This document shows positions 1-30,157 of a stretch of DNA of 35,122 nucleotides, piece after piece. Source of the DNA: a virus. Taxonomy: Duplodnaviria > Heunggongvirae > Uroviricota > Caudoviricetes. The stretch is from the IMG/VR virus record IMGVR_UViG_2713896901_000010, one strand, 5' to 3'. The position numbers were made by a program, and so were the translations under genes. A model generated the notes under the pieces. It worked only from the letters and a program-made list of their open reading frames with translations. It was not told where the DNA came from and ran no database searches. The stretch's first letter is position 1; the number at the start of each line of letters is the position of its first letter.

Positions 1-258
1 ATGCAGCAGTATCACTATCCACTGGAAGACGGATTTACCGAAAGGATTCACACGCCGGGAGGCGTCAGGTCACTGGTGGAGGGATCGCACTTGATGAAAT
101 TACTCCGGGATCTCAATAAGGATGGATTTAATGTCGATGGCCCACTTGCCGAACTGACTGCACTGATTAACTACGTCACCAGCTCACAGATGTCTATGCA
201 GGATCTGCAAACACATCTCGACTATTGTGCCGAACAATTACGAAAACAAACCAGATAA
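1..258 (+). CDS. C-terminal fragment of an antirepressor-family protein (5' end upstream of window)
   Basis: Frame open from window edge to TAA 256-258; its ~80 aa share ~45% identity with the C-terminal module of the two complete antirepressor genes (576-1226, 2008-2952). Confidence 0.5.
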   Translation: MQQYHYPLEDGFTERIHTPGGVRSLVEGSHLMKLLRDLNKDGFNVDGPLAELTALINYVTSSQMSMQDLQTHLDYCAEQLRKQTR

Positions 259-261
259 GGT

Positions 262-290
262 TTGAAATTACCAAGTGGAGTGCTTATATT
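262..290 (+). promoter_or_regulatory. sigma70-like promoter TTGAAA-N17-TATATT
   Basis: -35 TTGAAA 262-267, 17-bp spacer, -10 TATATT 285-290; last T of -10 is first T of operator 290-304. Confidence 0.5.
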
Positions 291-304
291 TACCTTTGCG
301 GTAA
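290..304. promoter_or_regulatory. operator dyad TTACC-N5-GGTAA (site A)
   Basis: Perfect 5+5 inverted half-sites ttacc tttgc ggtaa. Confidence 0.6.
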
Positions 305-394
305 ATTTACATCGCACTCCTCTTGTGCCATAGTAATCGGGCACTGGCAAAATCCAGTGTCGGGATTGGTCTCCCGGATTACTAAGTGGCGCAT

Positions 395-417
395 ACCACG
401 CCAGACGTGGTTTTTTT
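395..417 (+). terminator. rho-independent terminator
   Basis: Stem accacg/cgtggt with 5-nt loop followed by T7 run 411-417. Confidence 0.6.
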
Positions 418-575
418 ATGCGTATAGCACAGTCATGCCAGAATTATGGTGGGCTGAATGGGGGTCCGAAAGGACGCCGGTACCACTTAGGCCGGTAAGA
501 CCAACTCCGTTCAGTTCACCACCATCTGATTGGTCTCAGCGGTGGTGATGTAATTCGCTAAGTGGAGACGCCATA

Positions 576-1226
576 ATGAACGCTCAACTCATCCCCGTAT
601 TCAACGGCACTATATCCAACGAAACCGCTCTTCTCGTTAATGCCCGTGATTTACACACTTTCCTCGATGTGGGTAAGCGATTTGCTTCGTGGATTGTCGA
701 ACGAATTGCTGAATATGGTTTCGTTGAAAATCAAGACTTTATGATTATTTCCCAAGTTCGGGAAAAAATAGGCAGAGGCCGTCCTGCAAAAGACTACCAC
801 CTCACCCTCGATACAGCCAAAGAGCTGGCGATGGTCGAGCGTAACGAAAAAGGTCGTCAGGTACGACGCTACTTCATTGAATGCGAGAAACGTTTAAGAC
901 AACAAGAAACAAAAGTGGAGAAGGTCTTGTCAGGCTTCATGCCCGCCATTATGGAGGCGATCAAGCTGGAAGACAAAAAAGAATACAGCGCCCCGCTGAA
1001 GCCCGGCTACCGCAGTCTGATTCATTCTCCGTCTGGTGTTCTCGGCCTGACGGAGAACTCACTGCTGATGAATCTGCTGAACCAGTTACAGGACGACGGG
1101 CACGACGTATCGGGCGCGGCGGCGGAGCTGACAACCATGTTCTGCTACATCGTCGGTGTGAGCAAATGCCTGCGTGATATCCAGACACACGCGGAGTACA
1201 TCAACGACAAGGCAGGATTCTTCTGA
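576..1226 (+). CDS. phage antirepressor, KilAC-type N-terminal domain plus shared C-terminal module
   Basis: ATG 576 with GGAG 9 nt upstream; N-terminal ...DYHLTLDTAKELAMVERNEKGRQVRRYFIECEKR matches the KilA-C/ANT antirepressor signature; last 80 aa identical to the C-terminus of the 2008-2952 product. Confidence 0.8.
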   Translation: MNAQLIPVFNGTISNETALLVNARDLHTFLDVGKRFASWIVERIAEYGFVENQDFMIISQVREKIGRGRPAKDYHLTLDTAKELAMVERNEKGRQVRRYFIECEKRLRQQETKVEKVLSGFMPAIMEAIKLEDKKEYSAPLKPGYRSLIHSPSGVLGLTENSLLMNLLNQLQDDGHDVSGAAAELTTMFCYIVGVSKCLRDIQTHAEYINDKAGFF

Positions 1227-1248
1227 CGGCGGCGGCACAGGGATGTGC
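994..1248. repeat. inverted repeat arm 1 (~255 bp, ~95% identical to reverse complement of 1985-2241)
   Basis: Direct comparison: only a handful of synonymous third-position differences plus one 3-5 nt indel just after the stop codon. Confidence 0.8.
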
Positions 1249-1260
1249 CTTTAAATAATT
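1234..1260 (+). terminator. weak hairpin terminator after antirepressor gene
   Basis: ggcaca-ggga-tgtgcc hairpin followed by tttaaataatt; lies inside the inverted repeat. Confidence 0.35.
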
Positions 1261-1290
1261 CTGTACAGATTGCAGGTGAATAGCGTACTA

Positions 1291-1305
1291 TTACCCCAAA
1301 GGTAA
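1291..1305. promoter_or_regulatory. operator dyad TTACC-N5-GGTAA (site B)
   Basis: ttacc ccaaa ggtaa; abuts a -10-like TACTAT (1286-1291), 14 bp upstream of ATG 1319. Confidence 0.6.
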
Positions 1306-1318
1306 ACCGAGAGTTTAC

Positions 1319-1534
1319 ATGAGGGGGGGAAGCATGGAACTGAACATCATCACATTAATGAAAGCGCTTATTGGCGGTGCAGGAAGTGGCTTTGCTCTTT
1401 CTGGCGGGCTGTCTATGATCATACCTACTTTCACAGTGACGACTGGCGTTGCCTACCTTTTTGCCATTACTGGCGGTCTGGCTATGGCAGGTACTTACAT
1501 TTTAAAAAAAATGAGTTCCGGTAGTGCAGACTGA
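1319..1534 (+). CDS. small glycine-zipper membrane peptide (66-71 aa), function unknown
   Basis: ATG 1319 or ATG 1334 preceded by GAGGGGGGG; product MELNIITLMKALIGG/AGSGFALSGGLSMIIPTFTVTTGVAYLFAITGGLAMAGTYILKK is hydrophobic with repeated small-xxx-small motifs; AT-rich. Confidence 0.55.
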   Translation: MRGGSMELNIITLMKALIGGAGSGFALSGGLSMIIPTFTVTTGVAYLFAITGGLAMAGTYILKKMSSGSAD

Positions 1535-1871
1535 GATCGTACAAGAATCACATTGGTACAATCCACAGACCGCTCAGGAGCTGGCGATCTTTTATTGTAT
1601 CCTTTGCATTGTGTATATAGTAATCCACCTGATATGGGATTTTCTCTCAAAAGAGACTGGTAGGTTTTCTGTTGTTAACCTTCAGTACAAACTGAATGAG
1701 GTATATTCATCAACCACATTCGCAACGAGTGGTTTTTTCCTCGTTATGTTATGCGACATGAATAACCCTCTTAGAACATCAGATGCGTTTATCATACCGC
1801 TTATCTTGGCAATGCTTACTGGATTCATGATATCAATATCCGCAATAGCGCCAAAAAAAGTTAACATTTAA
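1524..1871 (+). CDS. predicted 3-TM membrane protein (start uncertain, GTG 1524)
   Basis: Overlaps stop of upstream gene; three hydrophobic segments; no ATG before residue 75, so the start is unresolved; stop TAA 1869-1871 sits at the foot of a strong terminator. Confidence 0.4.
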   Translation: MQTEIVQESHWYNPQTAQELAIFYCILCIVYIVIHLIWDFLSKETGRFSVVNLQYKLNEVYSSTTFATSGFFLVMLCDMNNPLRTSDAFIIPLILAMLTGFMISISAIAPKKVNI

Positions 1872-1893
1872 GCCCGCACTGCGGGCTTTTTTG
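1871..1893 (+). terminator. rho-independent terminator
   Basis: agcccgc-act-gcgggct hairpin followed by TTTTTT. Confidence 0.75.
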
Positions 1894-1930
1894 TGTCTGC
1901 GGATTCCCGCCCGGGCGGCGGTGGCATTCG

Positions 1931-1956
1931 TTAAAAACAAGGCCGCGAAAGCGGCC
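1931..1956 (-). terminator. rho-independent terminator for the minus-strand ant gene
   Basis: On minus strand GGCCGC-tttc-GCGGCC followed by TTGTTTTT. Confidence 0.6.
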
Positions 1957-1957
1957 T

Positions 1958-1969
1958 GTGACATGTCAC
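1958..1969. repeat. 12-bp perfect palindrome GTGACATGTCAC (copy 1 of 2)
   Basis: Identical 12-mer recurs at 22609-22620; both copies sit just 5' of a minus-strand terminator. Confidence 0.5.
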
Positions 1970-1984
1970 GATAGTTCCGTTTTG

Positions 1985-2241
1985 CACATCCCTGTGCCGC
2001 CGTTCTGTCAGAAGAACCCTGCCTTGTCGTTGATGTACTCCGCGTGGGTCTGGATATCACGCAGGCACTTGCTCACACCGACGATGTAGCAGAACATGGT
2101 GGTCAGCTCCGCCGCCGCGCCCGATACATCGTGCCCGTCGTCCTGTAACTGGTTAAGCAGATTCATCAGCAGTGAGTTCTCCGTCAGGCCGAGAACACCC
2201 GACGGCGAATGAATCAGACTGCGGTAGCCGGGCTTCAGCGG
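1985..2241. repeat. inverted repeat arm 2 (partner of 994-1248)
   Basis: Reverse complement matches 994-1248 at ~95%. Confidence 0.8.
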
Positions 2242-2952
2242 ATAACCATAACATTTTGTCTGTGTTTTAATTGCCTCACGAAGCGCATCTAACATCTTGA
2301 CTGCCACTTCATCATTCTCTGATGCAGATCCAGCAGGGAGATGCTCCCCTTCAAGCGGAACCCGAGCAACAAGAGACAACGCTTCGGCGAATTGATCTTC
2401 ATCAATTTCTTTGTACGAACAGCCAAAATGAGATTTCAGTGACGACCACATGGTGATCATCGCCTTAGCCTGTTTTTCTTTTGGCAGAGACTGACCGCGA
2501 CTCATGACGAGTTGTTTAATGGCTTCCTGCTGTTCAGTGGTTATTTTACCCGGCAGCGCCTTTTTAGCTTTGCGTGGGTTAACCACATGGCCTTTAGTCC
2601 AGTACTCGTAGAGCACATCGTCACACTCTTCCTGATACTGGATTACCTTGTCGCGGATTTCAGGGCGGACTTTGTTAGGGCTGATGGTTTGCAACCAGCC
2701 AGCAAGTTTGCGAAGTGCCAAACAAATAATCTCACGGCGCTGTTCATCCCCAGGAAGCTGCATTGTGATTTTCACAATGCAGGTTTTAAACCGCTGCTTC
2801 ATTTTCGTAAACTGTGAAGCCCAATCCATACCCATGCCTTCAACGATAGGTTTCATTGGGGTGTACGGTTCTCCGTTGTGATTGACAACATAAAGTTCTG
2901 CGCCGTGGAATGGCACGTTGATAGTAGATACCGCTGTTGCTATACTCGCCAT
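2008..2952 (-). CDS. ant: antirepressor Ant (P22 Ant-like N-terminus plus shared C-terminal module)
   Basis: ATG 2952 with AGGA upstream; N-terminus ...INVPFHGAELYVVNHNGEPYTPMKPIVEGMG resembles P22 Ant ...SYVPFNGQQVRTVLIDGEPWF; sits downstream of arc as in P22 immI. Confidence 0.8.
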   Translation of the reverse strand: MASIATAVSTINVPFHGAELYVVNHNGEPYTPMKPIVEGMGMDWASQFTKMKQRFKTCIVKITMQLPGDEQRREIICLALRKLAGWLQTISPNKVRPEIRDKVIQYQEECDDVLYEYWTKGHVVNPRKAKKALPGKITTEQQEAIKQLVMSRGQSLPKEKQAKAMITMWSSLKSHFGCSYKEIDEDQFAEALSLVARVPLEGEHLPAGSASENDEVAVKMLDALREAIKTQTKCYGYPLKPGYRSLIHSPSGVLGLTENSLLMNLLNQLQDDGHDVSGAAAELTTMFCYIVGVSKCLRDIQTHAEYINDKAGFF

Positions 2953-3024
2953 GTCGTTAATTCCTATACGTAGTTTTACGATACTGAAGCCCTGACGGTC
3001 TGGCCACCGTTGGGCTTCGCTGTT

Positions 3025-3192
3025 TTATGCCACGCTATTCTTCTCACCAGTGAGTCCATACACTTTCCTCAGCTGATAGATAATCTCTGTATTGAACTTT
3101 CGGCATTCTTTTTCGCCATTTCTTTCAATAGCTAACTTCACATCGTCCGGAAAACGAACTCGTCGTTGACACATCTCTTTTGCTTTTTGCAT
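3025..3192 (-). CDS. arc: Arc-like ribbon-helix-helix repressor (55 aa)
   Basis: Internal ATG 3192 with AAGGAG at 7-nt spacing; RRVRFPDDVKLAIERNGEKECRKFNTEIIYQL parallels P22 Arc RWPREVLDLVRKVAEENGRSVNSEIYQRV. Confidence 0.75.
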   Translation of the reverse strand: MQKAKEMCQRRVRFPDDVKLAIERNGEKECRKFNTEIIYQLRKVYGLTGEKNSVA

Positions 3193-3206
3193 TTCATATC
3201 TCCTTG

Positions 3207-3266
3207 GCCCCACCGTGGGGCAAAACAATTGTCACACCGTGCGTCATTGATGTCAAGCACACGGTG
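3207..3266. promoter_or_regulatory. divergent arc/mnt control region with three spaced CACCGTG/CACGGTG heptamers
   Basis: caccgtg 3211-3217 (inside palindrome gccccaccgtggggc 3207-3221), caccgtg 3235-3241, cacggtg 3260-3266; spacing 24 and 25 bp. Confidence 0.5.
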
Positions 3267-3312
3267 AGGCATACTTCAATCATTGCAAGTAACTCAATAT
3301 TTGGTGAAGAAC

Positions 3313-3744
3313 ATGAGCAGAGAAGATCCACAACTAAGGATCAGACTTCCCGTTGAAGTAAAAGAAAAAATAGAAATTTCTGCAAAAGCCAATAAGCGAT
3401 CAATGAACGCTGAAATAGTACAACGTCTTGACACCAGCTTTCTGAAAGATATTCATGAAGATGACGTAATTTCTGCTTATGAAGCAAAAATTATTGCAAA
3501 CAATGCACGGCATGAAATATCAAATATTATTTTCAAAAGAACTTTTAATGAAATCAATAAGAAAATAACACTTGGACATACAAGTTTTTATATAAACCTT
3601 AATGACCTTGAACTGGAATCACTTGCAGATAATGATTACCAGATCATCTTTGAAAAAACATTTAATAAGCTCAATGAACTAGGTTACATCATCTGTGAAA
3701 ACTCATGGGATGCAGATGGTTTTGGAATTGAAATACCTGAATAG
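3313..3744 (+). CDS. mnt: Mnt-like RHH repressor with ~60-aa extra C-terminal extension
   Basis: ATG 3313 (table start 3283 is TTG); MSREDPQLRIRLPVEVKEKIEISAKANKRSMNAEIVQRL closely parallels P22 Mnt MARDDPHFNFRMPMEVREKLKFRAEANGRSMNSELLQIV; divergent from arc-ant as in P22. Confidence 0.8.
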   Translation: MSREDPQLRIRLPVEVKEKIEISAKANKRSMNAEIVQRLDTSFLKDIHEDDVISAYEAKIIANNARHEISNIIFKRTFNEINKKITLGHTSFYINLNDLELESLADNDYQIIFEKTFNKLNELGYIICENSWDADGFGIEIPE

Positions 3745-3786: not shown

Positions 3787-4398
3787 TTGAAAAACGCCAC
3801 ATTACTGATGTATGTTACAACAAGGAGCGATATTTTGAAAACCATATCTATATTAAAGGTTGCATTAGGCGTCGCTATTATTTTGACTCTCTCAATATTG
3901 TTTTATTTTTACCACAAAAAAACTGCTATTGCTCTTGATGGTCACGCGGCAAACTCATTTTTCTCAGAGTACATAGTGCCGCTATCAGGAAGCGGTATAA
4001 CAAATAAATATACTGACTATGACATCAAATATGGAATTGATGATGGGGAGACTATTGCATTACATGTAATCATTAAAAACCTAATGACAGTAAATAAAAA
4101 TACAGACTTCAACGATAAAAATACAATACATCACAACAACAGCAAAACATTAATTTCTTATAGTAGCAACATCTATACGGATAAATACCTAAAATACATC
4201 TCAGAAGATACAATAAAAGCAACCAGCGAAAAGTTAAAAAACATATATTGTGCATCCGGCAGTTTTCACAAATTATCGCCGCAAGAGCGTTTATTCTACG
4301 AAGCAAGAAAACAACGTAAGTCAATAATATTCCATTATTATGCTGATTCAGGGGAGTCACTCATATTTAATATTGGGGTTTCCCCTGAATCATGCTAA
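3787..4398 (+). CDS. membrane-anchored protein of unknown function at the sieA position
   Basis: Most likely start is TTG 3835 (AAGGAG 3822-3827, 7-nt spacer), alternative ATG 3808; one N-terminal TM helix then an Asn/Lys/Tyr-rich domain; very AT-rich. Confidence 0.55.
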   Translation: MKNATLLMYVTTRSDILKTISILKVALGVAIILTLSILFYFYHKKTAIALDGHAANSFFSEYIVPLSGSGITNKYTDYDIKYGIDDGETIALHVIIKNLMTVNKNTDFNDKNTIHHNNSKTLISYSSNIYTDKYLKYISEDTIKATSEKLKNIYCASGSFHKLSPQERLFYEARKQRKSIIFHYYADSGESLIFNIGVSPESC

Positions 4399-4409
4399 AG
4401 GCGTTTAAC

Positions 4410-7400
4410 TCACCGCATCACCGGATCCACCTGGTTTATTAGTGGCGCAATCCAGAACAGGTTATTGCCTGGTATCAGGGTTCGGACATTATGCACAATA
4501 CGATCACCGGCATCACCATTCAACACTCCTGCGGTCACATCAATGATGCTATCCGCAAGACCAAATGACGGTCCGAATAGAGATCCTACGAATCCACGAC
4601 TGGCATACCTAGACTGTGTGCCAGTGCCAAATAAAGCCCCCAGCCCAACAGCACCACCAGTAGCCTTTTCAGCCATGTTGTTATATTCCATCAATGGCCC
4701 AAGAATACCGGATCTATCTATACCCTCAAGCACCAGCTTCTCTGGTGACCAGTCAACATTTTTCCCTTTCGATGCTTCTTTTAGCGCATAGACCAGTGAG
4801 CCAAGAGCAATCTGAAATGCAGTGCCATAATAAAATTGCGCAGTTCCTTCCTGTAACCCACCAAGTAGCGCACGGTTGTATGAAGCCGTTGTGAATGATT
4901 TAAACTGAAATATCGTTCGCCCCATTGGAGTACTCGCCCATAAAGGTGTGTCACCAATACCGGGGGTGATGATAGTGTTATTAACGTCTTTCAGAACCGC
5001 TGACTGGAATACTCCGGCAACGTACTGATCGTCCCATTTATCAAAGTTACCAATGTGCCATCCATCAATTACCTCACCATGTTTCTCGAACTCACTGCGA
5101 ATACGCGCAGCCATATTGTCGTTGATACCGAGTTTTGCCATGCGACGTGCAGAAAACGCACCAGACAAAATACCGTCTGACGTGAGCATTCCGTTCATGG
5201 ATTTGTTTATGTCATTAAATCGATCCATGAGTGTCAGCTTGCCGAAGGCATCAGTAATTCGCTCCATTCCTGCTTCGACTGCTGTTGTCCTGGAAGAACT
5301 GTCAACAAGATCACCAATTGCACGAGAACGTGAATGTAGTACAGCTTCCAATCCAATCCCCATCTTCAACATCTCTTCTTTGCTGGCCTTAAATGCCGGT
5401 GATTGGGATATCTGAGAAGCATAGCCTTTCATGGTGTTACGGAAACCATTAACCATAACCCCTCTGGCCAGATCTGGAATAGCTGATACTGTCATTCCAC
5501 CGAGTTTGGTCGTGAAGTTCACATCCCGCAGAAAAGCGCCAGCACGAACAAAAAACGAAGACGGATCATCAGGCATACCATATGTACCAACAAGACGATC
5601 GCGTAATGCTGTTATGTCTCTGAGATCATTTGCTCTTGATTTTGAAAGTCTGGACTGTTCTTTCCGTAATTCCTTTTCGTACTTTCGCATTAATGAATCG
5701 AGTTTACCCTGAGGAACAACTTCACCATTGCTCTCATAACGTGCTTTCAGATTTGCCACACTTTCGTCATATTTCGCCTTTATTTTTTCAGGCACTTCCC
5801 GTAACAGACTGTCATATTCGTCCTCAATTAATTGCAGACGCTCAGTCATAGTTCGTTTGCCAAATGTTCTCGTCAACTCAATTTCTGCTGCCGCTTCACG
5901 GATATGACGTTGCAGCACGTAATTCACATCACTTTCAAGATAATCCCTGATAAGACTATCAGGAACATTTAATGTTCTTTCTTTCGTACTACCTGCGGCT
6001 TTTACAGAAAATACGCTGACAAAATCCTGTGGAACCTTAGCACCAGTAATTTTATTAATTACGATATCCGCTGCAATTTCAGCATCCTCAGGATCCAGTG
6101 TTTTATTTCCTCTCGACCACCAGCCAACCAAAATACGTCGAAATTTATCGCGTTCACTGATTATTTTTCCAACTTTATATATGCGTGGGAAATAGCTTGC
6201 CTGGCCTAATGCTTTCAGTTCTTCATCTGGCGGCAATAAACCAAGCTTTTGCATTTCAACTTTCACCCGATTTAATACAGTTCGCATCGCCTGCGCCGTT
6301 TCCTGAACAACAGGATTAGCATGCACATCACCGCTTCGCATAGCATTCCCAACCTGCTGACGAAATGAATCAAAACTCATGTCACCACCATCAGCTTTAT
6401 ACTTTGCGTATGCCTGTTTATTTCCGACAACAACAGCAGCTTCTTCACGCTGCCATCCACGTGTACGGGTTTCTACAGCTACCGGTGTTTCAATCCCCCT
6501 TTCATTTCCTTTAAGGGTGAAATTATTTTCGGCTAACTCCAGCGTTGTTTTTCGCACCGTCTTGGACGGAGACTCCATTAACCTTGTCAAAGGAGTAAGA
6601 TAGCTCCCTGCTTTCCATGCAGCCTTTCCAACCCACCCACCGGAAACAGGGGTTAAATCATCCAGAGTCGCTGTATCAATTTTCATAGCACCAACACTAC
6701 CACCATCGGAAAGCGAAGCGGCAGCCCTGTCAGTCGCTGATGTAATGCTCATATTATCAAGAGCATCAGCAACCTCACGTGTGGCTGCAGCCCGGACGGA
6801 TGGCGAAAGCGCAACACCAGCACTGGCAAACACGCCGCTCATCATCGCACCCGCTGCAACGTGAGCGGCACTTTCACCCCATGAGCGTGTTATTTGCTGA
6901 TTATTCAGTACAACCTCGCTTAATGCTGTACCGGCAGCACCAATCGCAATCTGTGAGCCAATACGCGCCAGTGCCCCTCCTTGAGCACCGGGAATAAACA
7001 TTGACGCAACAGTAACCGGATCCATTCCCGCAGCAATACTGGCAAGGGTTCCAACTACGCCAGCATCAGACAATAAACGTCTGTCTTCATTTTCATCATC
7101 TATCTGCTGCTTAATCCACGCCGTTTCCTCTGGCGATCGGGAATCTGCAAATTTCGCCCCCCAGTATTCATAACCGTGCAACTCATTTTTATCAGCATAT
7201 GGGTTATAACCCTCGACCGGTTCAAACTGTCTGGCTGGGCGGAAAAAACCAGACAGAATATTGTTCTGTCGCATTGCAGCCCCCCATACGGAAGGCTCAG
7301 GTGGCAATGGCTCAGGATTAGCCCCTTCCGGAAGGGCAACATCAAACCCAGTTTGTTCCGGCAAAACATTACCTGACGGGATCAGTCCGTTATTAAGATC

Positions 7401-19784: not shown

Positions 19785-19861
19785 GTGGCATTAGCTCAGT
19801 TGGACAGAGCAACCGCCTTCTAAGCGGTTGGTCGCAGGTTCGAATCCTGCATGCCACGCCA
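19785..19861 (+). tRNA. tRNA-Arg (anticodon UCU), phage-encoded
   Basis: Manual cloverleaf: acceptor GTGGCAT/ATGCCAC, U8, D-stem GCTC/GAGC with GG in loop, anticodon stem ACCGC/GCGGT, loop CUUCUAA, T-stem GCAGG/CCTGC with TTCGAAT loop, discriminator G, encoded CCA; differs from E. coli argU as I recall it. Confidence 0.9.
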
Positions 19862-20118: not shown

Positions 20119-20418
20119 ATGAATGGTTGGAATAGAAAAAAGACTCAATATTTAGCTGAGTGCATCCACGAACACGAAAAAGCCGACGGAGTAACCTACG
20201 ATCCTAACGGTATGGTTAGCTACTGGAACACAAAATATAACCTCGTTCCGGCTGAACAGTTGCCAGCATTACAAAATCAGGTATCTCTCGAATTAGAAGC
20301 TCTACGCGGTGCTGAGACTAACCATGTAACAATTAGCAACATTGGTGCCGCTAAGTTTGGATTCGACTCTGTAATAGGGAATCATCTACCTAACTTCGAT
20401 CCGGAGCCAGTTAAGTAA
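20119..20418 (+). CDS. hypothetical protein (99 aa), moron between terL and portal
   Basis: ATG 20119 with AAGGAG at 6-nt spacing; opposite strand to all flanking late genes. Confidence 0.6.
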   Translation: MNGWNRKKTQYLAECIHEHEKADGVTYDPNGMVSYWNTKYNLVPAEQLPALQNQVSLELEALRGAETNHVTISNIGAAKFGFDSVIGNHLPNFDPEPVK

Positions 20419-20429
20419 TTTGCTGACCA

Positions 20430-21905
20430 TTATGCATAAGGGTCATAATCCGTTATGGCCCTTCCCTGCTGGCTTTGCTGTCCTGGTATATTTATGCGTT
20501 TCGACACCGGGAAAGCAAACGTCAGCAGTAGCGCATCGCCTTTACCCAGCGAACGCCCAAGACGCTCTTTGATATCTTCCTTCGGTTCGATAACGATTTT
20601 ACCGTCCACACGAACTTTGTACTCTGCCGCCGACAGGTCGTCTGCAGTTTCCTGGTCATCCAGCATGCCGCCCAGCCTCAGCCATGTCTTGCATGAATTG
20701 AACATCTCCCCACGCTTGTTGAGCATCTGCGGGTCAGTAGACGCGCCACCGAACGGAACAAGTTGCCATGTACGACCCCATCCGTCACCGATTGACTTCA
20801 GACCGGTTCCGTAACCGAAGTCGATGAACACCGCGTCAGCCTGGTACTGGTCTTCAAAGTCAGCGATACGCTTCGCCATAATCAGATCGTCAGTGGTCTT
20901 GTTGCCAGTCCACAGCACCTTACTGTGCAGCCCCTGCCTCAGGTATATCACCGCGTCATCAACGCCTGAGTATGCCGGGTCAACGCCGATTATCACCGGA
21001 GCATGTGCAACCTGCACAGCGGTTACCACCCGTTTCATTGCCTCGTCAGTAAGGCCGGTAGGGATAAACTGCAATTCAGATGCATCCGGGAATATGCCGC
21101 GCACACGGATTTTAACGAAGTCGCTGTCTTCCCCGTAGTCATCAACCCATTTCTGCAACTGCTGTTTGTTAGTGCCTTCCACCGTCCGGCTGTCAATCTG
21201 CGCAGTTTTCCAGCGGTGTTTATATTTGCGGAAACATTCGCGGAAACGTCCGGTGTTACGTGTAGGGTTTCCAAACGCCACCCAGATAATCTCAGTGTCT
21301 TCGTCCGTAAGCGCACCCTCAGCAACTTCCCACACCAGATCCGCAATGTTCGACGCTTCATCGAATACCACGATGATGCGTTTGCGCTCGTTGTGTAGTC
21401 CGGCGAATGCCTCAGTGTTGTGCTCAGACCAGGGGATTGCGTCAGCTCGCCACCGCTTGTCGTGCCCAGGGTCATTGCTGTACATCGCGGTAGCGGTACA
21501 GGTAAACCAGTCTTTCGTGATAGCAAGGTTCGACCACTTGATAATTTCCGGCCAGGTCTTCGTTCGTAGCTGGTTGTCGGTGTTGGCGGTCACCACGACC
21601 TTACAATCCTCGCAAGTGGACATGCCCCAGTTGATCAGCATTGAGATGAATGCGGATTTACCAATACCGTGACCAGAAGCGCGTGCCAGCATAAGCGGCT
21701 GATAGCGCGTCTCTGGATTCTGCAGGTGATCACGTATCTCTCGGAACGCATCAGCCTGCCACTGACGTGGGCCGGTAGCATGTGCCAGTTCAGTCCCCTC
21801 TTCCCCCCAAGGGAACGCATAGAGGGCATAGCCAAGCGGATCGTGAGTGAACCCTGCAATATCCTCGATTAACTGCTCTTCAGGAGATAACGCTGTATCT
21901 GTCAC
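20430..21905 (-). CDS. terL: terminase large subunit (491 aa)
   Basis: GTG start overlapping terS stop (GTGA); Walker-A-like ARASGHGIGKS near N-terminus; size and position. Confidence 0.9.
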   Translation of the reverse strand: MTDTALSPEEQLIEDIAGFTHDPLGYALYAFPWGEEGTELAHATGPRQWQADAFREIRDHLQNPETRYQPLMLARASGHGIGKSAFISMLINWGMSTCEDCKVVVTANTDNQLRTKTWPEIIKWSNLAITKDWFTCTATAMYSNDPGHDKRWRADAIPWSEHNTEAFAGLHNERKRIIVVFDEASNIADLVWEVAEGALTDEDTEIIWVAFGNPTRNTGRFRECFRKYKHRWKTAQIDSRTVEGTNKQQLQKWVDDYGEDSDFVKIRVRGIFPDASELQFIPTGLTDEAMKRVVTAVQVAHAPVIIGVDPAYSGVDDAVIYLRQGLHSKVLWTGNKTTDDLIMAKRIADFEDQYQADAVFIDFGYGTGLKSIGDGWGRTWQLVPFGGASTDPQMLNKRGEMFNSCKTWLRLGGMLDDQETADDLSAAEYKVRVDGKIVIEPKEDIKERLGRSLGKGDALLLTFAFPVSKRINIPGQQSQQGRAITDYDPYA

Positions 21906-22498
21906 TGATTGCCATCCTGACGTTCTTTGAGTCGCTTCCTGGCTGCTGCTATGCGATCAGCAATTGTCACACTCACATTAACATCCAGGCGTTCTTTGAA
22001 TGCGTTGACGTCGACGTGCTTACCAATCAGTTCGAGGTTCTTCACCTTGTCAGGCCACTTAATTTTTTTGAGGATTGTCTCTATCGAATCCTCGTTCATG
22101 TTCATGATGGTCGATGACAGATCAAAGCCGCTAAGCGTAGTGCGCCAGATTTTCGGCCACTCGCGGATTGGTTTAAGGCTCCCATCGTCGTTGAGGATGT
22201 CGATCACGTCCATCTGGTCGATCTCCACCAGGCGCATGAGAACGTAATCAGCACTGACGCGCATTCGTTTGTTGCGCTCCTCCATCAACTCGGCAATCCG
22301 TTTCTGAATGCGTTCATCGCGCATCATGACACTGGCTTTAACTGCCGCTGTATTTGGGGAGAATCCTGCGTTAATCGCTGCCTGAGTCTGGTTTTCAGGC
22401 GTTTTGATGTATGACTGGCAATAAGCCTCCTGCATTGCTGTTAGTGGCTTAAATTGCGTTGATTTGCGTTTATAGGTTTTAGGTTCAGCAGGCATCAT
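21902..22498 (-). CDS. terS: terminase small subunit (~197 aa)
   Basis: Immediately upstream of and overlapping terL; basic helical N-terminal region; likely start is the ATG pair 22498/22495 rather than table TTG 22576. Confidence 0.75.
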   Translation of the reverse strand: MMPAEPKTYKRKSTQFKPLTAMQEAYCQSYIKTPENQTQAAINAGFSPNTAAVKASVMMRDERIQKRIAELMEERNKRMRVSADYVLMRLVEIDQMDVIDILNDDGSLKPIREWPKIWRTTLSGFDLSSTIMNMNEDSIETILKKIKWPDKVKNLELIGKHVDVNAFKERLDVNVSVTIADRIAAARKRLKERQDGNQ

Positions 22499-22530
22499 AA
22501 CCACCGTGGTAATAGTTACCGTTGTGGTAA
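22498..22530. promoter_or_regulatory. tandem operator dyads upstream of terS (sites D2 and D1)
   Basis: 22516-22530 ttacc gttgt ggtaa (10/10); 22498-22512 taacc accgt ggtaa (9/10) overlapping the terS start codon and GGTGG RBS. Confidence 0.55.
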
Positions 22531-22540
22531 TAGTACCATG

Positions 22541-22567
22541 CAAAATAAAGCCGCCATAGTTGGCGGC
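22541..22567 (-). terminator. rho-independent terminator upstream of the late operon
   Basis: On minus strand GCCGCCA-acta-TGGCGGC followed by TTTATTTTG. Confidence 0.65.
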
Positions 22568-22608
22568 AGTATTCAAAACACATCAAATTCATCATGCATA
22601 ACCTACTC

Positions 22609-22620
22609 GTGACATGTCAC
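22609..22620. repeat. 12-bp perfect palindrome GTGACATGTCAC (copy 2 of 2)
   Basis: Identical to 1958-1969; overlaps stop codon of 22617-22958. Confidence 0.5.
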
Positions 22621-26974: not shown

Positions 26975-26989
26975 TTACCTCTTAGGTAA
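26975..26989. promoter_or_regulatory. operator dyad TTACC-N5-GGTAA (site E1)
   Basis: ttacc tctta ggtaa, 3 nt upstream of ATG 26971; contains the GAGGT RBS on the minus strand. Confidence 0.55.
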
Positions 26990-27017
26990 TTAAAAACCAC
27001 ATAAGACACGAAATCAA
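26989..27017 (-). promoter_or_regulatory. sigma70-like promoter TTGATT-N17-TTTAAT (minus strand)
   Basis: -35 at 27012-27017, -10 at 26989-26994, flanked by operators E1 and E2. Confidence 0.45.
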
Positions 27018-27036
27018 TAGAGTTTAGAATATTTTA

Positions 27037-27051
27037 TTACCCAACAGGTAA
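27037..27051. promoter_or_regulatory. operator dyad TTACC-N5-GGTAA (site E2)
   Basis: ttacc caaca ggtaa. Confidence 0.55.
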
Positions 27052-27089: not shown

Positions 27090-27890
27090 TTACTTGATAA
27101 ATCCTGCCGCCTTTCCCCGCCTGTATTCCTCCATCAGCCACTGAGCCGGTGTTATTCCCCCAAGGGTGGCGGCGTTAGGCATGCACCCGAAACTTCGCCC
27201 TGGTGGGTGGTAAACGTCTCTCCCTGTGTCCGGAGGTGTACTCATGGGTTCTGGCTTTGCCTGTATGCTGATCACCGGATCGGGTATCTGCTGTCCGGAA
27301 GCCACCTTTTTCGCCCAATCATCGAGCAGCCTGCGCGCGTGTTTCTCAACCTCAATCTCGCTAAGCTGGCGCTGATACATTGCACGGCGGGTATCACATA
27401 CGACCCAGTACATAACCGGATGTCGCCACGGGAATCTTTCGGGACCACCAGGATATAAACTTTTTTCCTTGCTGTACCGGTGAAACTCCGCCATCACATC
27501 GTCAATGGTGACGCCAAGAACCATCTTGCTGTCTTTGCACCACTTGATAAATTGCCCTGGCGACGGCCAGAACGGAGATTCACTGGCGCGGGCGTGGCGC
27601 ATACCAGCAGAAACCTGTTCACGGGTTCGGATCCCCCCTTCGGCAAACGCAGCAATCCACTGCTGTTTTGCAGCAACTTCCTGCTCTGGCGTCTTCAGGT
27701 TGGTTACCACTGCCGCCGGAAACAGTTGTTTCAGCTGTTTGAAAAGGGCATCAACAAGCCTCTCTGCTGACATGTTCACCACGTTGTCATTGTTGGTGTA
27801 CTGATGCTCATAACCTGACATGCGAGAAAGGGCTTCTCCGTCACGGTTTTGTATCGCGGTAAAAACGTTGTTCACAAGAAATCCTCCCAT
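27090..27890 (-). CDS. replication protein P-like helicase loader (266 aa)
   Basis: ...VAAKQQWIAAFAEGGIRTREQVSAGMRHARASESPFWPSPGQFIKWCKD parallels lambda P ...RRQWVLAFRENGITTMEQVNAGMRVARRQNRPFLPSPGQFVAWCRE. Confidence 0.8.
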   Translation of the reverse strand: MGGFLVNNVFTAIQNRDGEALSRMSGYEHQYTNNDNVVNMSAERLVDALFKQLKQLFPAAVVTNLKTPEQEVAAKQQWIAAFAEGGIRTREQVSAGMRHARASESPFWPSPGQFIKWCKDSKMVLGVTIDDVMAEFHRYSKEKSLYPGGPERFPWRHPVMYWVVCDTRRAMYQRQLSEIEVEKHARRLLDDWAKKVASGQQIPDPVISIQAKPEPMSTPPDTGRDVYHPPGRSFGCMPNAATLGGITPAQWLMEEYRRGKAAGFIK

Positions 27891-28687
27891 GCTTCAGGGC
27901 TGTTCCAGTGCGGAACGTTGTTATCAGGTAATGTTGATTGCTTCTGTCTGCTAATCTGCAGCCGCCTTGCCAGCTTCTGCTCCCACTGTGCCTGATGGTA
28001 TGCCTTACCCTCAGCCATCCAGTAAATTCTGAACTCTGCAAGTTCCTGTGCCGTTGGCAGAGTGTCCAGGTAGATCCCCTGCAATGAGCTTTTCCGAAGA
28101 AAGTCATCTGATGGCTGCCATTGTTCATGCATGACAAATTTGCCTAATTGCCCTGGCCCACCAGGAGGAACAAAGTTATTCATCACGGCGTTGTTTGCGC
28201 CGGGGTCATGAGGCACAGAATTCCCGGTTTTTGTCCCGCTCTCCCTCTCTTGGTTAAATGACTGGTTATATGACTGGTTCTGGATCCCGTTTTTGGGATC
28301 ATTCAACATCCCGTTTTTGGGATCATTCAACATCCCGTTTTTGGGTATATTCCCGTTTTCGGGAACATTACCGTTTTCGGGTTCATTCCACCCTTCCCGG
28401 TTGCCTTTAATATTCCCGTTTTTGGTTATATTAAGAGAGAAAACCCGCACTCTTTTCGTCGCTCCCTTTCTCTCTCCGGTATCTGAAATAAGCCCCATTT
28501 TCATGAGCGATATGAGCCCGGCCTGCACGGTTTTTTTATTCAGGCAAGTGTCTTTAACGAGGCGTTCTATGCTGGGGTAGCAGAGGTTATCTTCATCGGC
28601 TCTGTCAGCCATCGAGAGCAGTATGAGCTTTAATGACGAGCTACCTGGATCTGTCTCCCAGGCCCAATCTGTTGCATGTCTGCTCAT
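27872..28687 (-). CDS. replication initiator, lambda O-like, with iterons inside the coding sequence (271 aa)
   Basis: N-terminal winged-helix-like region; central PENGNVPENGNIPKNGMLNDPKNGMLNDPKNG encoded by DNA iterons; immediately upstream of P-like gene. Confidence 0.65.
   Translation of the reverse strand: MSRHATDWAWETDPGSSSLKLILLSMADRADEDNLCYPSIERLVKDTCLNKKTVQAGLISLMKMGLISDTGERKGATKRVRVFSLNITKNGNIKGNREGWNEPENGNVPENGNIPKNGMLNDPKNGMLNDPKNGIQNQSYNQSFNQERESGTKTGNSVPHDPGANNAVMNNFVPPGGPGQLGKFVMHEQWQPSDDFLRKSSLQGIYLDTLPTAQELAEFRIYWMAEGKAYHQAQWEQKLARRLQISRQKQSTLPDNNVPHWNSPEAWEDFL
28286..28433. repeat. origin iterons (5-6 tandem units, core CCCGTTTT(T/C)GGG)
   Basis: Two perfect 24-bp units cccgtttttgggatcattcaacat at 28286-28309 and 28310-28333, degenerate units to 28433; direct repeat atgactggtt x2 at 28259-28279. 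Confidence 0.7.
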
Positions 28688-29320: not shown

Positions 29321-29383
29321 TCACCCATAAGGTAACAAAAATCAAGGATAGTTACCTATGAGGTGCATTTACCTGTTGGGTAA
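29321..29383. promoter_or_regulatory. OR-like operator cluster (three dyads)
   Basis: 29321-29335 tcacc cataa ggtaa (9/10); 29352-29366 ttacc tatga ggtgc (8/10); 29369-29383 ttacc tgttg ggtaa (10/10). Confidence 0.6.
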
Positions 29384-29438: not shown

Positions 29439-30023
29439 ATGAAAAGTATCCAGGACGTCCGCAGGCAAAATCTCAACGACTTGATCGACCGTGAATTCAA
29501 TGGTGTTCAGACGCGGATGGCAGAAAAACTTGGAACTCAGGCAAATCTGGTAAACCGCTGGGCTCTTGGAAAGAAGGTTATCGGCGACCAGGTTGCGCGA
29601 AAAATTGAAGCTGCCGCCAATAAACCCCGTAACTGGCTTGATATCGATCGCTCGCTTTCTCAGGAAGGTTTTCAGCCTGTCGGCCCAAGCGACATTGGTC
29701 AGCTGGCGGCTCACAACCTGGAACGCTGGATGAGCGAAAGCCGCGACCTTTCAACACAGGGAAAACTTCACCGCGCATCCGGCGTCGCCCAGGTGACAAT
29801 CAGCCGCCTGTTAAACAATGAGGTCAGCGTTTCCATTTCCACCTTGGAGAATGTTGCATCCGCATTCGGGCGTCACGGCTATGAATTACTGATTCACCCG
29901 CACGACCCTGCGACCATCAACTATGACCGCTCGCGCTACGCATTGTTACCCGAAACCGAGAAAGCAAAGATCGAAAGTTACATTGAATTTGTCATCAATC
30001 AGAACGAAAAAAACAAACAATAA
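29439..30023 (+). CDS. CI-like repressor with two HTH motifs and no S24 peptidase domain (194 aa)
   Basis: N-terminal XRE-type HTH (MAEKLGTQANLVNRW) plus second HTH (SGVAQVTISRLLNNEVSVSISTLENVA); no Ser/Lys autoproteolysis domain visible. Confidence 0.7.
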   Translation: MKSIQDVRRQNLNDLIDREFNGVQTRMAEKLGTQANLVNRWALGKKVIGDQVARKIEAAANKPRNWLDIDRSLSQEGFQPVGPSDIGQLAAHNLERWMSESRDLSTQGKLHRASGVAQVTISRLLNNEVSVSISTLENVASAFGRHGYELLIHPHDPATINYDRSRYALLPETEKAKIESYIEFVINQNEKNKQ

Positions 30024-30080: not shown

Positions 30081-30095
30081 TTACCTGGTGGGTAA
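30081..30095. promoter_or_regulatory. operator dyad TTACC-N5-GGTAA (site H1)
   Basis: ttacc tggtg ggtaa. Confidence 0.6.
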
Positions 30096-30114
30096 TTTTT
30101 TTAACTCATATCTA

Positions 30115-30143
30115 TTGACATCAAACCAGATACGCATAATTAT
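30115..30143 (+). promoter_or_regulatory. pL-like promoter TTGACA-N17-AATTAT
   Basis: Consensus -35 at 30115-30120; -10 at 30138-30143 whose last T is the first base of operator H2. Confidence 0.55.
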
Positions 30144-30157
30144 TACCTCAACGGTAA
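30143..30157. promoter_or_regulatory. operator dyad TTACC-N5-GGTAA (site H2)
   Basis: ttacc tcaac ggtaa. Confidence 0.6.

Follow-up and report, generated by a model that had tools for sequence, protein, structure and literature searches.

The DNA just ahead of terS, the gene for the small terminase subunit, raises the question of how the late genes of a temperate phage are switched on when a terminator stands directly before the first of them and no -35 hexamer can be recognised. The locus lies in a stretch of 35,122 nucleotides (the window), a Uetakevirus prophage (epsilon15/phiV10-like) whose late genes lie on the minus strand. The region is 97-98% identical to phiV10, TL-2011b, PAS61 and other Uetakeviruses, and the gene order in the window matches that of phiV10 and epsilon15. 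The initial annotation left two ways into the late operon, read-through of the terminator or an activator-dependent promoter. There is a third, an extended -10 promoter, and the pattern TGnTAnnAT is found in every lineage examined. With moderate confidence we propose that the prophage repressor Rep directly represses a -35-independent extended -10 promoter of terS, both the binding and the promoter activity being deduced from sequence.

Read along the minus strand, the junction begins with the last gene of the early-right operon (22958-22617), which encodes a protein of about 112 aa of the phiV10 gp55 / epsilon15 gp49 / N15 gp46 family. A perfect 12-bp palindrome, GTGACATGTCAC (22620-22609), overlaps its stop codon, and an 8-codon open reading frame (MHDEFDVF-stop, 22599-22573, minus strand) ends 5 nt before the stem of an intrinsic terminator (22567-22541). 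Behind the terminator follow a putative extended -10 element, TGgTACTAT (22538-22530, hexamer TACTAT at 22535-22530), and two dyads. D1 (22530-22516, TTACCACAACGGTAA), an exact TTACC-N5-GGTAA dyad, abuts the hexamer, and D2 (22512-22498, TTACCACGGTGGTTA), which reads TTACC-ACGGT-GGTTA with one mismatch, lies 18 bp from D1. The palindrome, the terminator, the hexamer abutting D1 with D2 behind it, and the short gap between terminator and terS (from the end of the T-run at 22542 it is about 46 nt to the start at 22495) had all been described in the initial annotation and are present.

The hairpin GCCGCCAACTATGGCGGC followed by TTTATTTTG at 22567-22541 is the best terminator-like match of the region. 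Its stem (22567-22550) has seven pairs, six of them G-C, closes on a 4-nt loop and is followed by TTTATTTT, with the T-run at 22549-22542, which is the build of an intrinsic terminator; the hairpin appears in both the MFE and the centroid fold. Across lineages the stem is invariant, the seventh (closing) pair changing from A-U to G.U, and the epsilon15 record lists the homologous hairpin as a rho-independent terminator (39646..39672). This terminator closes the early-right operon.

The terS gene (21902-22495, minus strand) encodes a small terminase subunit of the Terminase_2 family (PF03592 at 1.5e-29, phrog_51 at 7e-58). ATG codons are found at 22498 and 22495; the second is conserved, aligns with the terS start of epsilon15 and gives a product of 197 aa. 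With the TTG start of the phiV10 RefSeq record (224 aa; window 21902-22576, locus L001 41-715), the reading frame would cross the terminator and both operators. D2 covers the Shine-Dalgarno sequence GGTGG (22505-22501) and stops 2 nt short of the conserved ATG. The proposal that D2 overlaps both the ribosome-binding site and the start codon accordingly stands for the former, while of the start codons it touches only the non-conserved upstream ATG.

The nested dyads could also act as RNA, through a hairpin in which the terS ribosome-binding site is hidden in transcripts that read through the terminator and left free in those initiated at the promoter. RNA from 22549 to 22470 folds at -20.7 kcal/mol (z -3.2) with Shine-Dalgarno and AUG paired, and RNA starting at 22523 keeps only a 5-bp hairpin. 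However, the homologous epsilon15 RNA neither adopts the same fold nor is unusually stable (z -1.3), and pairing of this kind follows automatically from tandem palindromic operators. We regard such a switch as very unlikely. A repressor bound to the DNA over the sequence of the ribosome-binding site acts on transcription, by occlusion or roadblock, and not on translation.

The prophage repressor and its candidate operators

The window carries its own repressor gene (29439-30023, plus strand). The product, Rep, matches the repressor of phage SPC32H (PDB 5D50) over its full length (residues 1-190, E 4e-42), so that a cognate repressor of the SPC32H family is encoded within the same element, as are antirepressor genes. 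SPC32H Rep is reported to occupy palindromic sites as a tetramer that is dismantled by the antirepressor (PMC9638917). In phage ZX5, a close relative, overexpression of the repressor cut holin and endolysin transcripts by 99.97-99.99% (PMC9782041), which fits global repression and is not specific to the terS promoter.

Positions 1-3744 of the window form an immI-like region with Arc/Mnt-like genes at 3025-3228 and 3283-3744 and three antirepressor-type open reading frames (1-258, 576-1226 and 2008-2952), all of which share a C-terminal domain. Repressor operators at 290 and 1291 precede plus-strand genes of this region.

The dyad TTACC-N5-GGTAA occurs in nine exact and three one-mismatch copies in the 35 kb window. 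Searching for TTACCNNNNNGGTAA with at most one mismatch gave these 12 matches against 0.67 expected, a number reached in none of 100 shuffles. Copies at 29321, 29369, 30081 and 30143 flank the repressor gene; the dyads also adjoin the cro gene and are found at several other promoters. Syntenic sets are present in epsilon15 (11 sites), SPN1S (10) and phiV10 (8), and one member of each set lies directly ahead of terS. In the GenBank record of epsilon15 the dyads are labelled 'protein_bind repressor', including 12..27 before terS, the homologue of D1; the experimental standing of the dyads as repressor operators goes back to this annotation and to secondary citations.

The Uetakevirus operator consensus is ATTACC-N5-GGTAAT; D1 agrees with it exactly in the 10 core positions and D2 with one mismatch. 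D1 is universal across lineages, its half-sites invariant and all five spacer positions variable. In most lineages D2 shows exactly one mismatch, among them one with a different terS N-terminus (L135/L159); it is degenerate in the SPN1S-like, L145 and L153 types. Epsilon15 and SPN1S likewise have tandem operators 17 bp apart in their OR region, so the D1-D2 pair at 18 bp is a native arrangement. D1 and D2 are therefore predicted to be operators of the prophage repressor, and Rep would be the dyad-binding protein that the initial annotation had placed on the terS initiation region.

Repeats at the 5' end of a terS gene may also recall a pac site bound by TerS, as in SPP1, whose TerS belongs to the same Pfam family and binds repeats where its own gene begins; the TerS of the window is likewise a Terminase_2 protein. 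Yet the dyad is dispersed over 12 places, including both flanks of the repressor gene, which fits a repressor and not a unique pac site, and a pac function is exceedingly improbable.

Two promoters of the window (30081-30157 and 26975-27051) each lie within a pair of exact operators spaced at 62 bp, of which one precedes the -35 and the other abuts the -10. Such 62-bp pairs recur in epsilon15, SPN1S and phiV10, and their geometry suggests looping by the tetrameric repressor.

A candidate extended -10 promoter of terS

The TG one base upstream of TACTAT completes an extended -10 pattern. The initial annotation had noted the lack of a recognisable -35; no such hexamer is found 16-18 nt upstream of TACTAT, a position filled by the terminator stem (TATGGC). 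The missing -35 would be explained by the extended -10, in which TG substitutes for it. In the loci retrieved by way of the upstream protein the TG is invariant and the hexamer reads TA[C/G/T][T/C/A]AT with positions 1, 2, 5 and 6 invariant, while the base between the two is G, A or T. The invariance of TG is counted only in these loci (L002, L007-L112 and epsilon15), which were fetched independently of the motif; in L114-L192 TG formed part of the search pattern, and these loci were excluded as evidence of conservation. The conservation footprint spans more than eight lineages; on the upstream side of the terminator the DNA is hypervariable.

The last two bases of the hexamer double as operator flank, which leaves TG-n-TA as the only independent evidence of a promoter. 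Across D1 no mirror copy of this conserved TG-n-TA is seen, and it is therefore not explained by operator symmetry. TACTAT fits the -10 consensus at four of six positions, and judging from this match the promoter may be weak or in need of help. The predicted start site lies near 22523, in the spacer of D1.

The same register of promoter and operator, with the -10 touching or overlapping the dyad, is seen elsewhere in the window, though there together with a good -35. TTGACA-17-AATTAT ends at the operator at 30143 and TTGAAA-17-TATATT at that at 290, both matching in 10 of 12 positions, and by eye TTGATT-17-TTTAAT ends at the operator at 26975. The promoter scan used cannot score promoters that have no -35. 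For relatives we found no published 5' ends, footprints or reporter data on the terS promoter.

We suggest that a sigma-70 extended -10 promoter directly behind the early-right terminator could work without a -35. In the lysogen, a Rep tetramer of the SPC32H type would bind D1, over the edge of the -10 and the predicted start near 22523, and in this lineage would also bind D2, over the DNA for the ribosome-binding site of terS. Occupancy by Rep would keep RNA polymerase off the promoter and block polymerase that leaks past the terminator. Once the antirepressor inactivates Rep, the promoter would fire and terS-terL be transcribed. Transcription in the window probably runs on through the late block to a strong terminator at 1957-1940 (minus strand), which, at the distal end of the late unit, lies flush with a second exact palindrome (1958-1969); as no other strong minus-strand terminator was found between terS and 1957 in the window, the unit may span about 20 kb.

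Other points count against a terS promoter controlled by Rep. With Rep as the sole regulator the late genes would not obviously be delayed relative to the early ones, a terminator behind terL in relatives means that the structural genes there need something more, and D2 is absent in some lineages.

The delay could be supplied by an activator. TACTAT would then be the -10 of an activator-dependent late promoter, at which a phage activator replaces the -35 and the Rep operators are superimposed. This would account for the imperfect -10 and the missing -35, and candidate regulators are at hand in the PerC-like activator annotated in phiV10 and in the RHH-like gene upstream. Nevertheless, the interval from -35 to -60 holds no conserved sequence besides the terminator, and upstream of this interval the DNA is hypervariable both in length and in sequence; the invariant TG, moreover, is the standard solution for promoters independent of a -35. 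An activator-dependent promoter therefore seems unlikely to us. As to other promoters, a candidate upstream of the terminator (GTGACA-18-CATGAT, 9/12) was rejected: its -10 varies across lineages (CGCGAT, ACTGAT), and other DNA can take the place of the interval.

The palindrome and its upstream gene

The palindrome was previously thought to belong to the entry of the late operon. It travels, however, with the upstream gene, even where a gene is inserted or the downstream DNA is different. Where a gene is inserted before terS (L009, L059, L087 and L095), the palindrome remains beside the upstream gene and the block of terminator, promoter and operator beside terS. Whatever follows, be it terS, LexA-box promoters, other terminators or simply the next gene, the palindrome adjoins its gene. 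Its distance to the terminator is 23, 24, 40, 41 or 42 nt, or 240-340 nt with an inserted gene, and the five short spacings rule out helical phasing of the palindrome to promoter or terminator. As far as sequence can tell, the palindrome is a separate module and not integral to the terS entry.

GTGAC-N2-GTCAC lies at the stop codon, or closely behind it, of genes of the gp55 family in Uetakeviruses, ZF40, N15, phiKO2, Yersinia P2-like prophages and many enterobacterial prophages. Identity of the upstream protein is 65% in Pectobacterium phage ZF40, about 35% in N15 and phiKO2 and about 40% in the Yersinia P2-like prophages. The palindrome reads GTGACTGGTCAC in N15 and phiKO2 and GTGACGCGTCAC in the Yersinia P2-like prophages, its central dinucleotide being lineage-specific (AT, TG/CA, GC or AC). 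In the window, GTGACNNGTCAC matches twice, against 0.00 expected.

The cassette of gene and palindrome spans temperate phages of podo-, sipho- and myovirus type, often with three copies of the palindrome per genome. Epsilon15, SPN1S and phiV10 have three each, all of which adjoin a strong terminator (0-41 nt). The window has two, the copy behind terL having been replaced by a different accessory region. Palindromes at phiV10 19493, epsilon15 19517 and SPN1S 19662 are syntenic with window 1958-1969 and likewise flush with a terminator. By locus, copies lie at 2142, 19517 and 39612 in L006, 2174, 19662 and 38653 in L195, 5125, 7622 and 14944 in L193, 28550, 33237 and 39269 in L194, 8468 in L196, 867 in L199 and 1105 in L197. 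In N15 and ZF40, which carry three palindromes each, the sites are not beside terminators, and two of the ZF40 sites and one of the N15 sites lie inside genes.

The interval between terL and the portal genes is a hypervariable slot. In most relatives it holds a terminator and the third palindrome, with at least five different accessory genes behind them. In the window it is taken up by a tRNA-Arg (anticodon tct, 19785-19861, plus strand) together with an accessory gene in reverse orientation (20119-20418), both antisense to the late operon. A further repeat of the window is the 20-nt hairpin-forming TGGGATCATTCAACATCCCG, which occurs twice, 24 nt apart (28294-28337, plus strand), within a replication gene (27872-28687); the pair may be an iteron-like origin element.

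The 8-codon open reading frame between palindrome and terminator is kept in four lineages and frameshifted in one; it occurs in the lineages with the long spacer, is frameshifted in five loci and is absent from epsilon15-type spacers. In L009 and L059 a longer reading frame (about 79 aa) ends with ...DEFDGL-stop at the same spot. A leader-peptide attenuator was therefore rejected, the short frame being a dispensable 3' relic of a gene that is longer in relatives. In several relatives (L087 at about 4350-4420, L088, L095, L003 at 1790-1850, and L106-L110) a LexA-box promoter (TACTGT-N8-ACAGTA) comes directly after the palindrome and transcribes umuD-like or other genes, so that this junction has also received an SOS-controlled cassette. 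That the phiV10 record starts inside the palindrome had suggested a cos or pac site; its first base is merely the one after the gp55 stop codon and gives no sign of a physical end.

The upstream protein combines an Arg-rich N-terminus with a beta-alpha-alpha pattern, invariant cysteines and a Cys-rich C-terminus, and its family is labelled 'transcriptional regulator' in PHROGs. Sequence searches of Pfam, NCBIfam and PDB gave no match. Its fold matches are RHH-like and come with a poor AF2 model (pLDDT 59.5), which lends weak support to a possible ribbon-helix-helix core. The palindrome at 22609-22620 is probably the binding site of the product of the gene that it adjoins.

What such binding could bring about bears on the read-through of the terminator. 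Late transcription would in that case pass the terminator, and the upstream product on the palindrome would suppress it or, early on, reinforce it; D1 and D2 would act mainly as roadblocks in the lysogen, and the whole would combine a Q-like position with a mechanism specific to a DNA site. The gene is indeed the last of the delayed-early operon with its site right behind, as are lambda Q and qut, all three Uetakevirus palindromes lie 0-41 nt from a strong terminator, no Q-family gene is found among the 10 genes nearest terS, and in relatives the terminator behind terL must be passed to reach the portal genes. Against this speak the variable distance from palindrome to terminator (23-42 nt, or 240-340 nt with an inserted gene), the sites of N15, ZF40 and Yersinia phages, which are not beside terminators, and the separate Q-like antiterminators that N15 and ZF40 own. 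The palindrome behind terL, moreover, sits downstream of its terminator in the late direction, and the conserved TG-n-TA would be left unexplained. Read-through as the way into terS is, in our judgement, improbable.

Searches of Pfam and NCBIfam gave no Q-family match for the upstream protein, the fold matches being RHH-like as noted, and no constitutive promoter of the kind found in Q modules is conserved between gene and terminator, relatives having either a short spacer or a whole gene there. A role of the protein as general late activator was discarded, N15 and ZF40 carrying Q-like genes besides it. A broader role, in which the protein binds the palindrome and switches the terminators that bound the packaging and late units off or on, and so times the late genes, is quite unlikely; if true, it would be a switch specific to a DNA site, unlike lambda Q or N.

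A Rep-controlled extended -10 promoter remains our preferred reading of the terS entry. The gene-plus-palindrome cassette is nevertheless the more novel lead of the two. It points to an uncharacterised DNA-binding system, which could serve terminator control, insulation or DNA bridging.

Comparison with known systems

The half-sites of the palindrome are those of E. coli matS, GTGAC[AG]N[TC]GTCAC (PMC3603311). The phage site differs in having 12 bp with a 2-bp spacer, whereas matS, GTGACRNYGTCAC, has 13 bp with a spacer of 3 bp, and no N3 (matS-type) version of the palindrome was found in the five phage genomes checked. The upstream protein was rejected as a MatP homologue, showing no similarity to it (hhalign probability 0.15%, with a low-confidence model).

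The repressor of the window is a full-length homologue of that of the SPC32H Rep/Ant switch (PDB 5D50/5D4Z), and SPN1S, which is close to SPC32H, has the same dyads, including one before terS. The SPC32H work deals with the tetramer and how Ant takes it apart (PMC9638917); in the accessible literature on this Rep/Ant pair we found nothing on the control of packaging genes.

Temperate phages with one immunity repressor and many sites throughout the genome are known. Phage P1 C1 and mycobacteriophage L5 gp71, the latter with its 'stoperators', act at such sites, some of which serve to stop transcription into lytic genes. The window resembles both in having about a dozen repressor sites that are not confined to the immunity region. 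Proteins and sites are unrelated, however; those of the window are symmetric dyads, often paired at 17-18 or 62 bp, and its terS site, unlike theirs, overlaps a promoter, here a candidate one.

The order of last delayed-early gene, cis site, terminator and late genes is shared with the Q/PR'/tR' module of lambda. In contrast to lambda, the upstream protein is not of the Q family and no promoter is conserved between gene and terminator; the window has instead a separate candidate promoter behind the terminator, predicted to be controlled by the repressor.

The closest precedent is epsilon15 itself (AY150271.2; Kropinski et al. 2007), which has, like the window, a terminator, an operator (12..27) and terS directly behind. 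Its palindrome-terminator spacer is 23 nt, as compared to 41 nt in the window, and the mismatch of D2 lies in the opposite half-site. Of the two operators the epsilon15 record annotates only D1, and it annotates neither promoter nor palindrome; its repressor sites are, as far as we found, predicted ones. The arrangement of terminator, repressor site and terS was thus already predicted for epsilon15, and new here are the extended -10 and the second operator. If the present reading holds, epsilon15-type phages, which include serotype-converting phages of Salmonella and E. coli O157, silence their packaging and structural genes directly by the immunity repressor, without the antitermination cascade of the Q type. 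This would provide the genus with a simple regulatory map, as well as a compact promoter-operator module that can be repressed.
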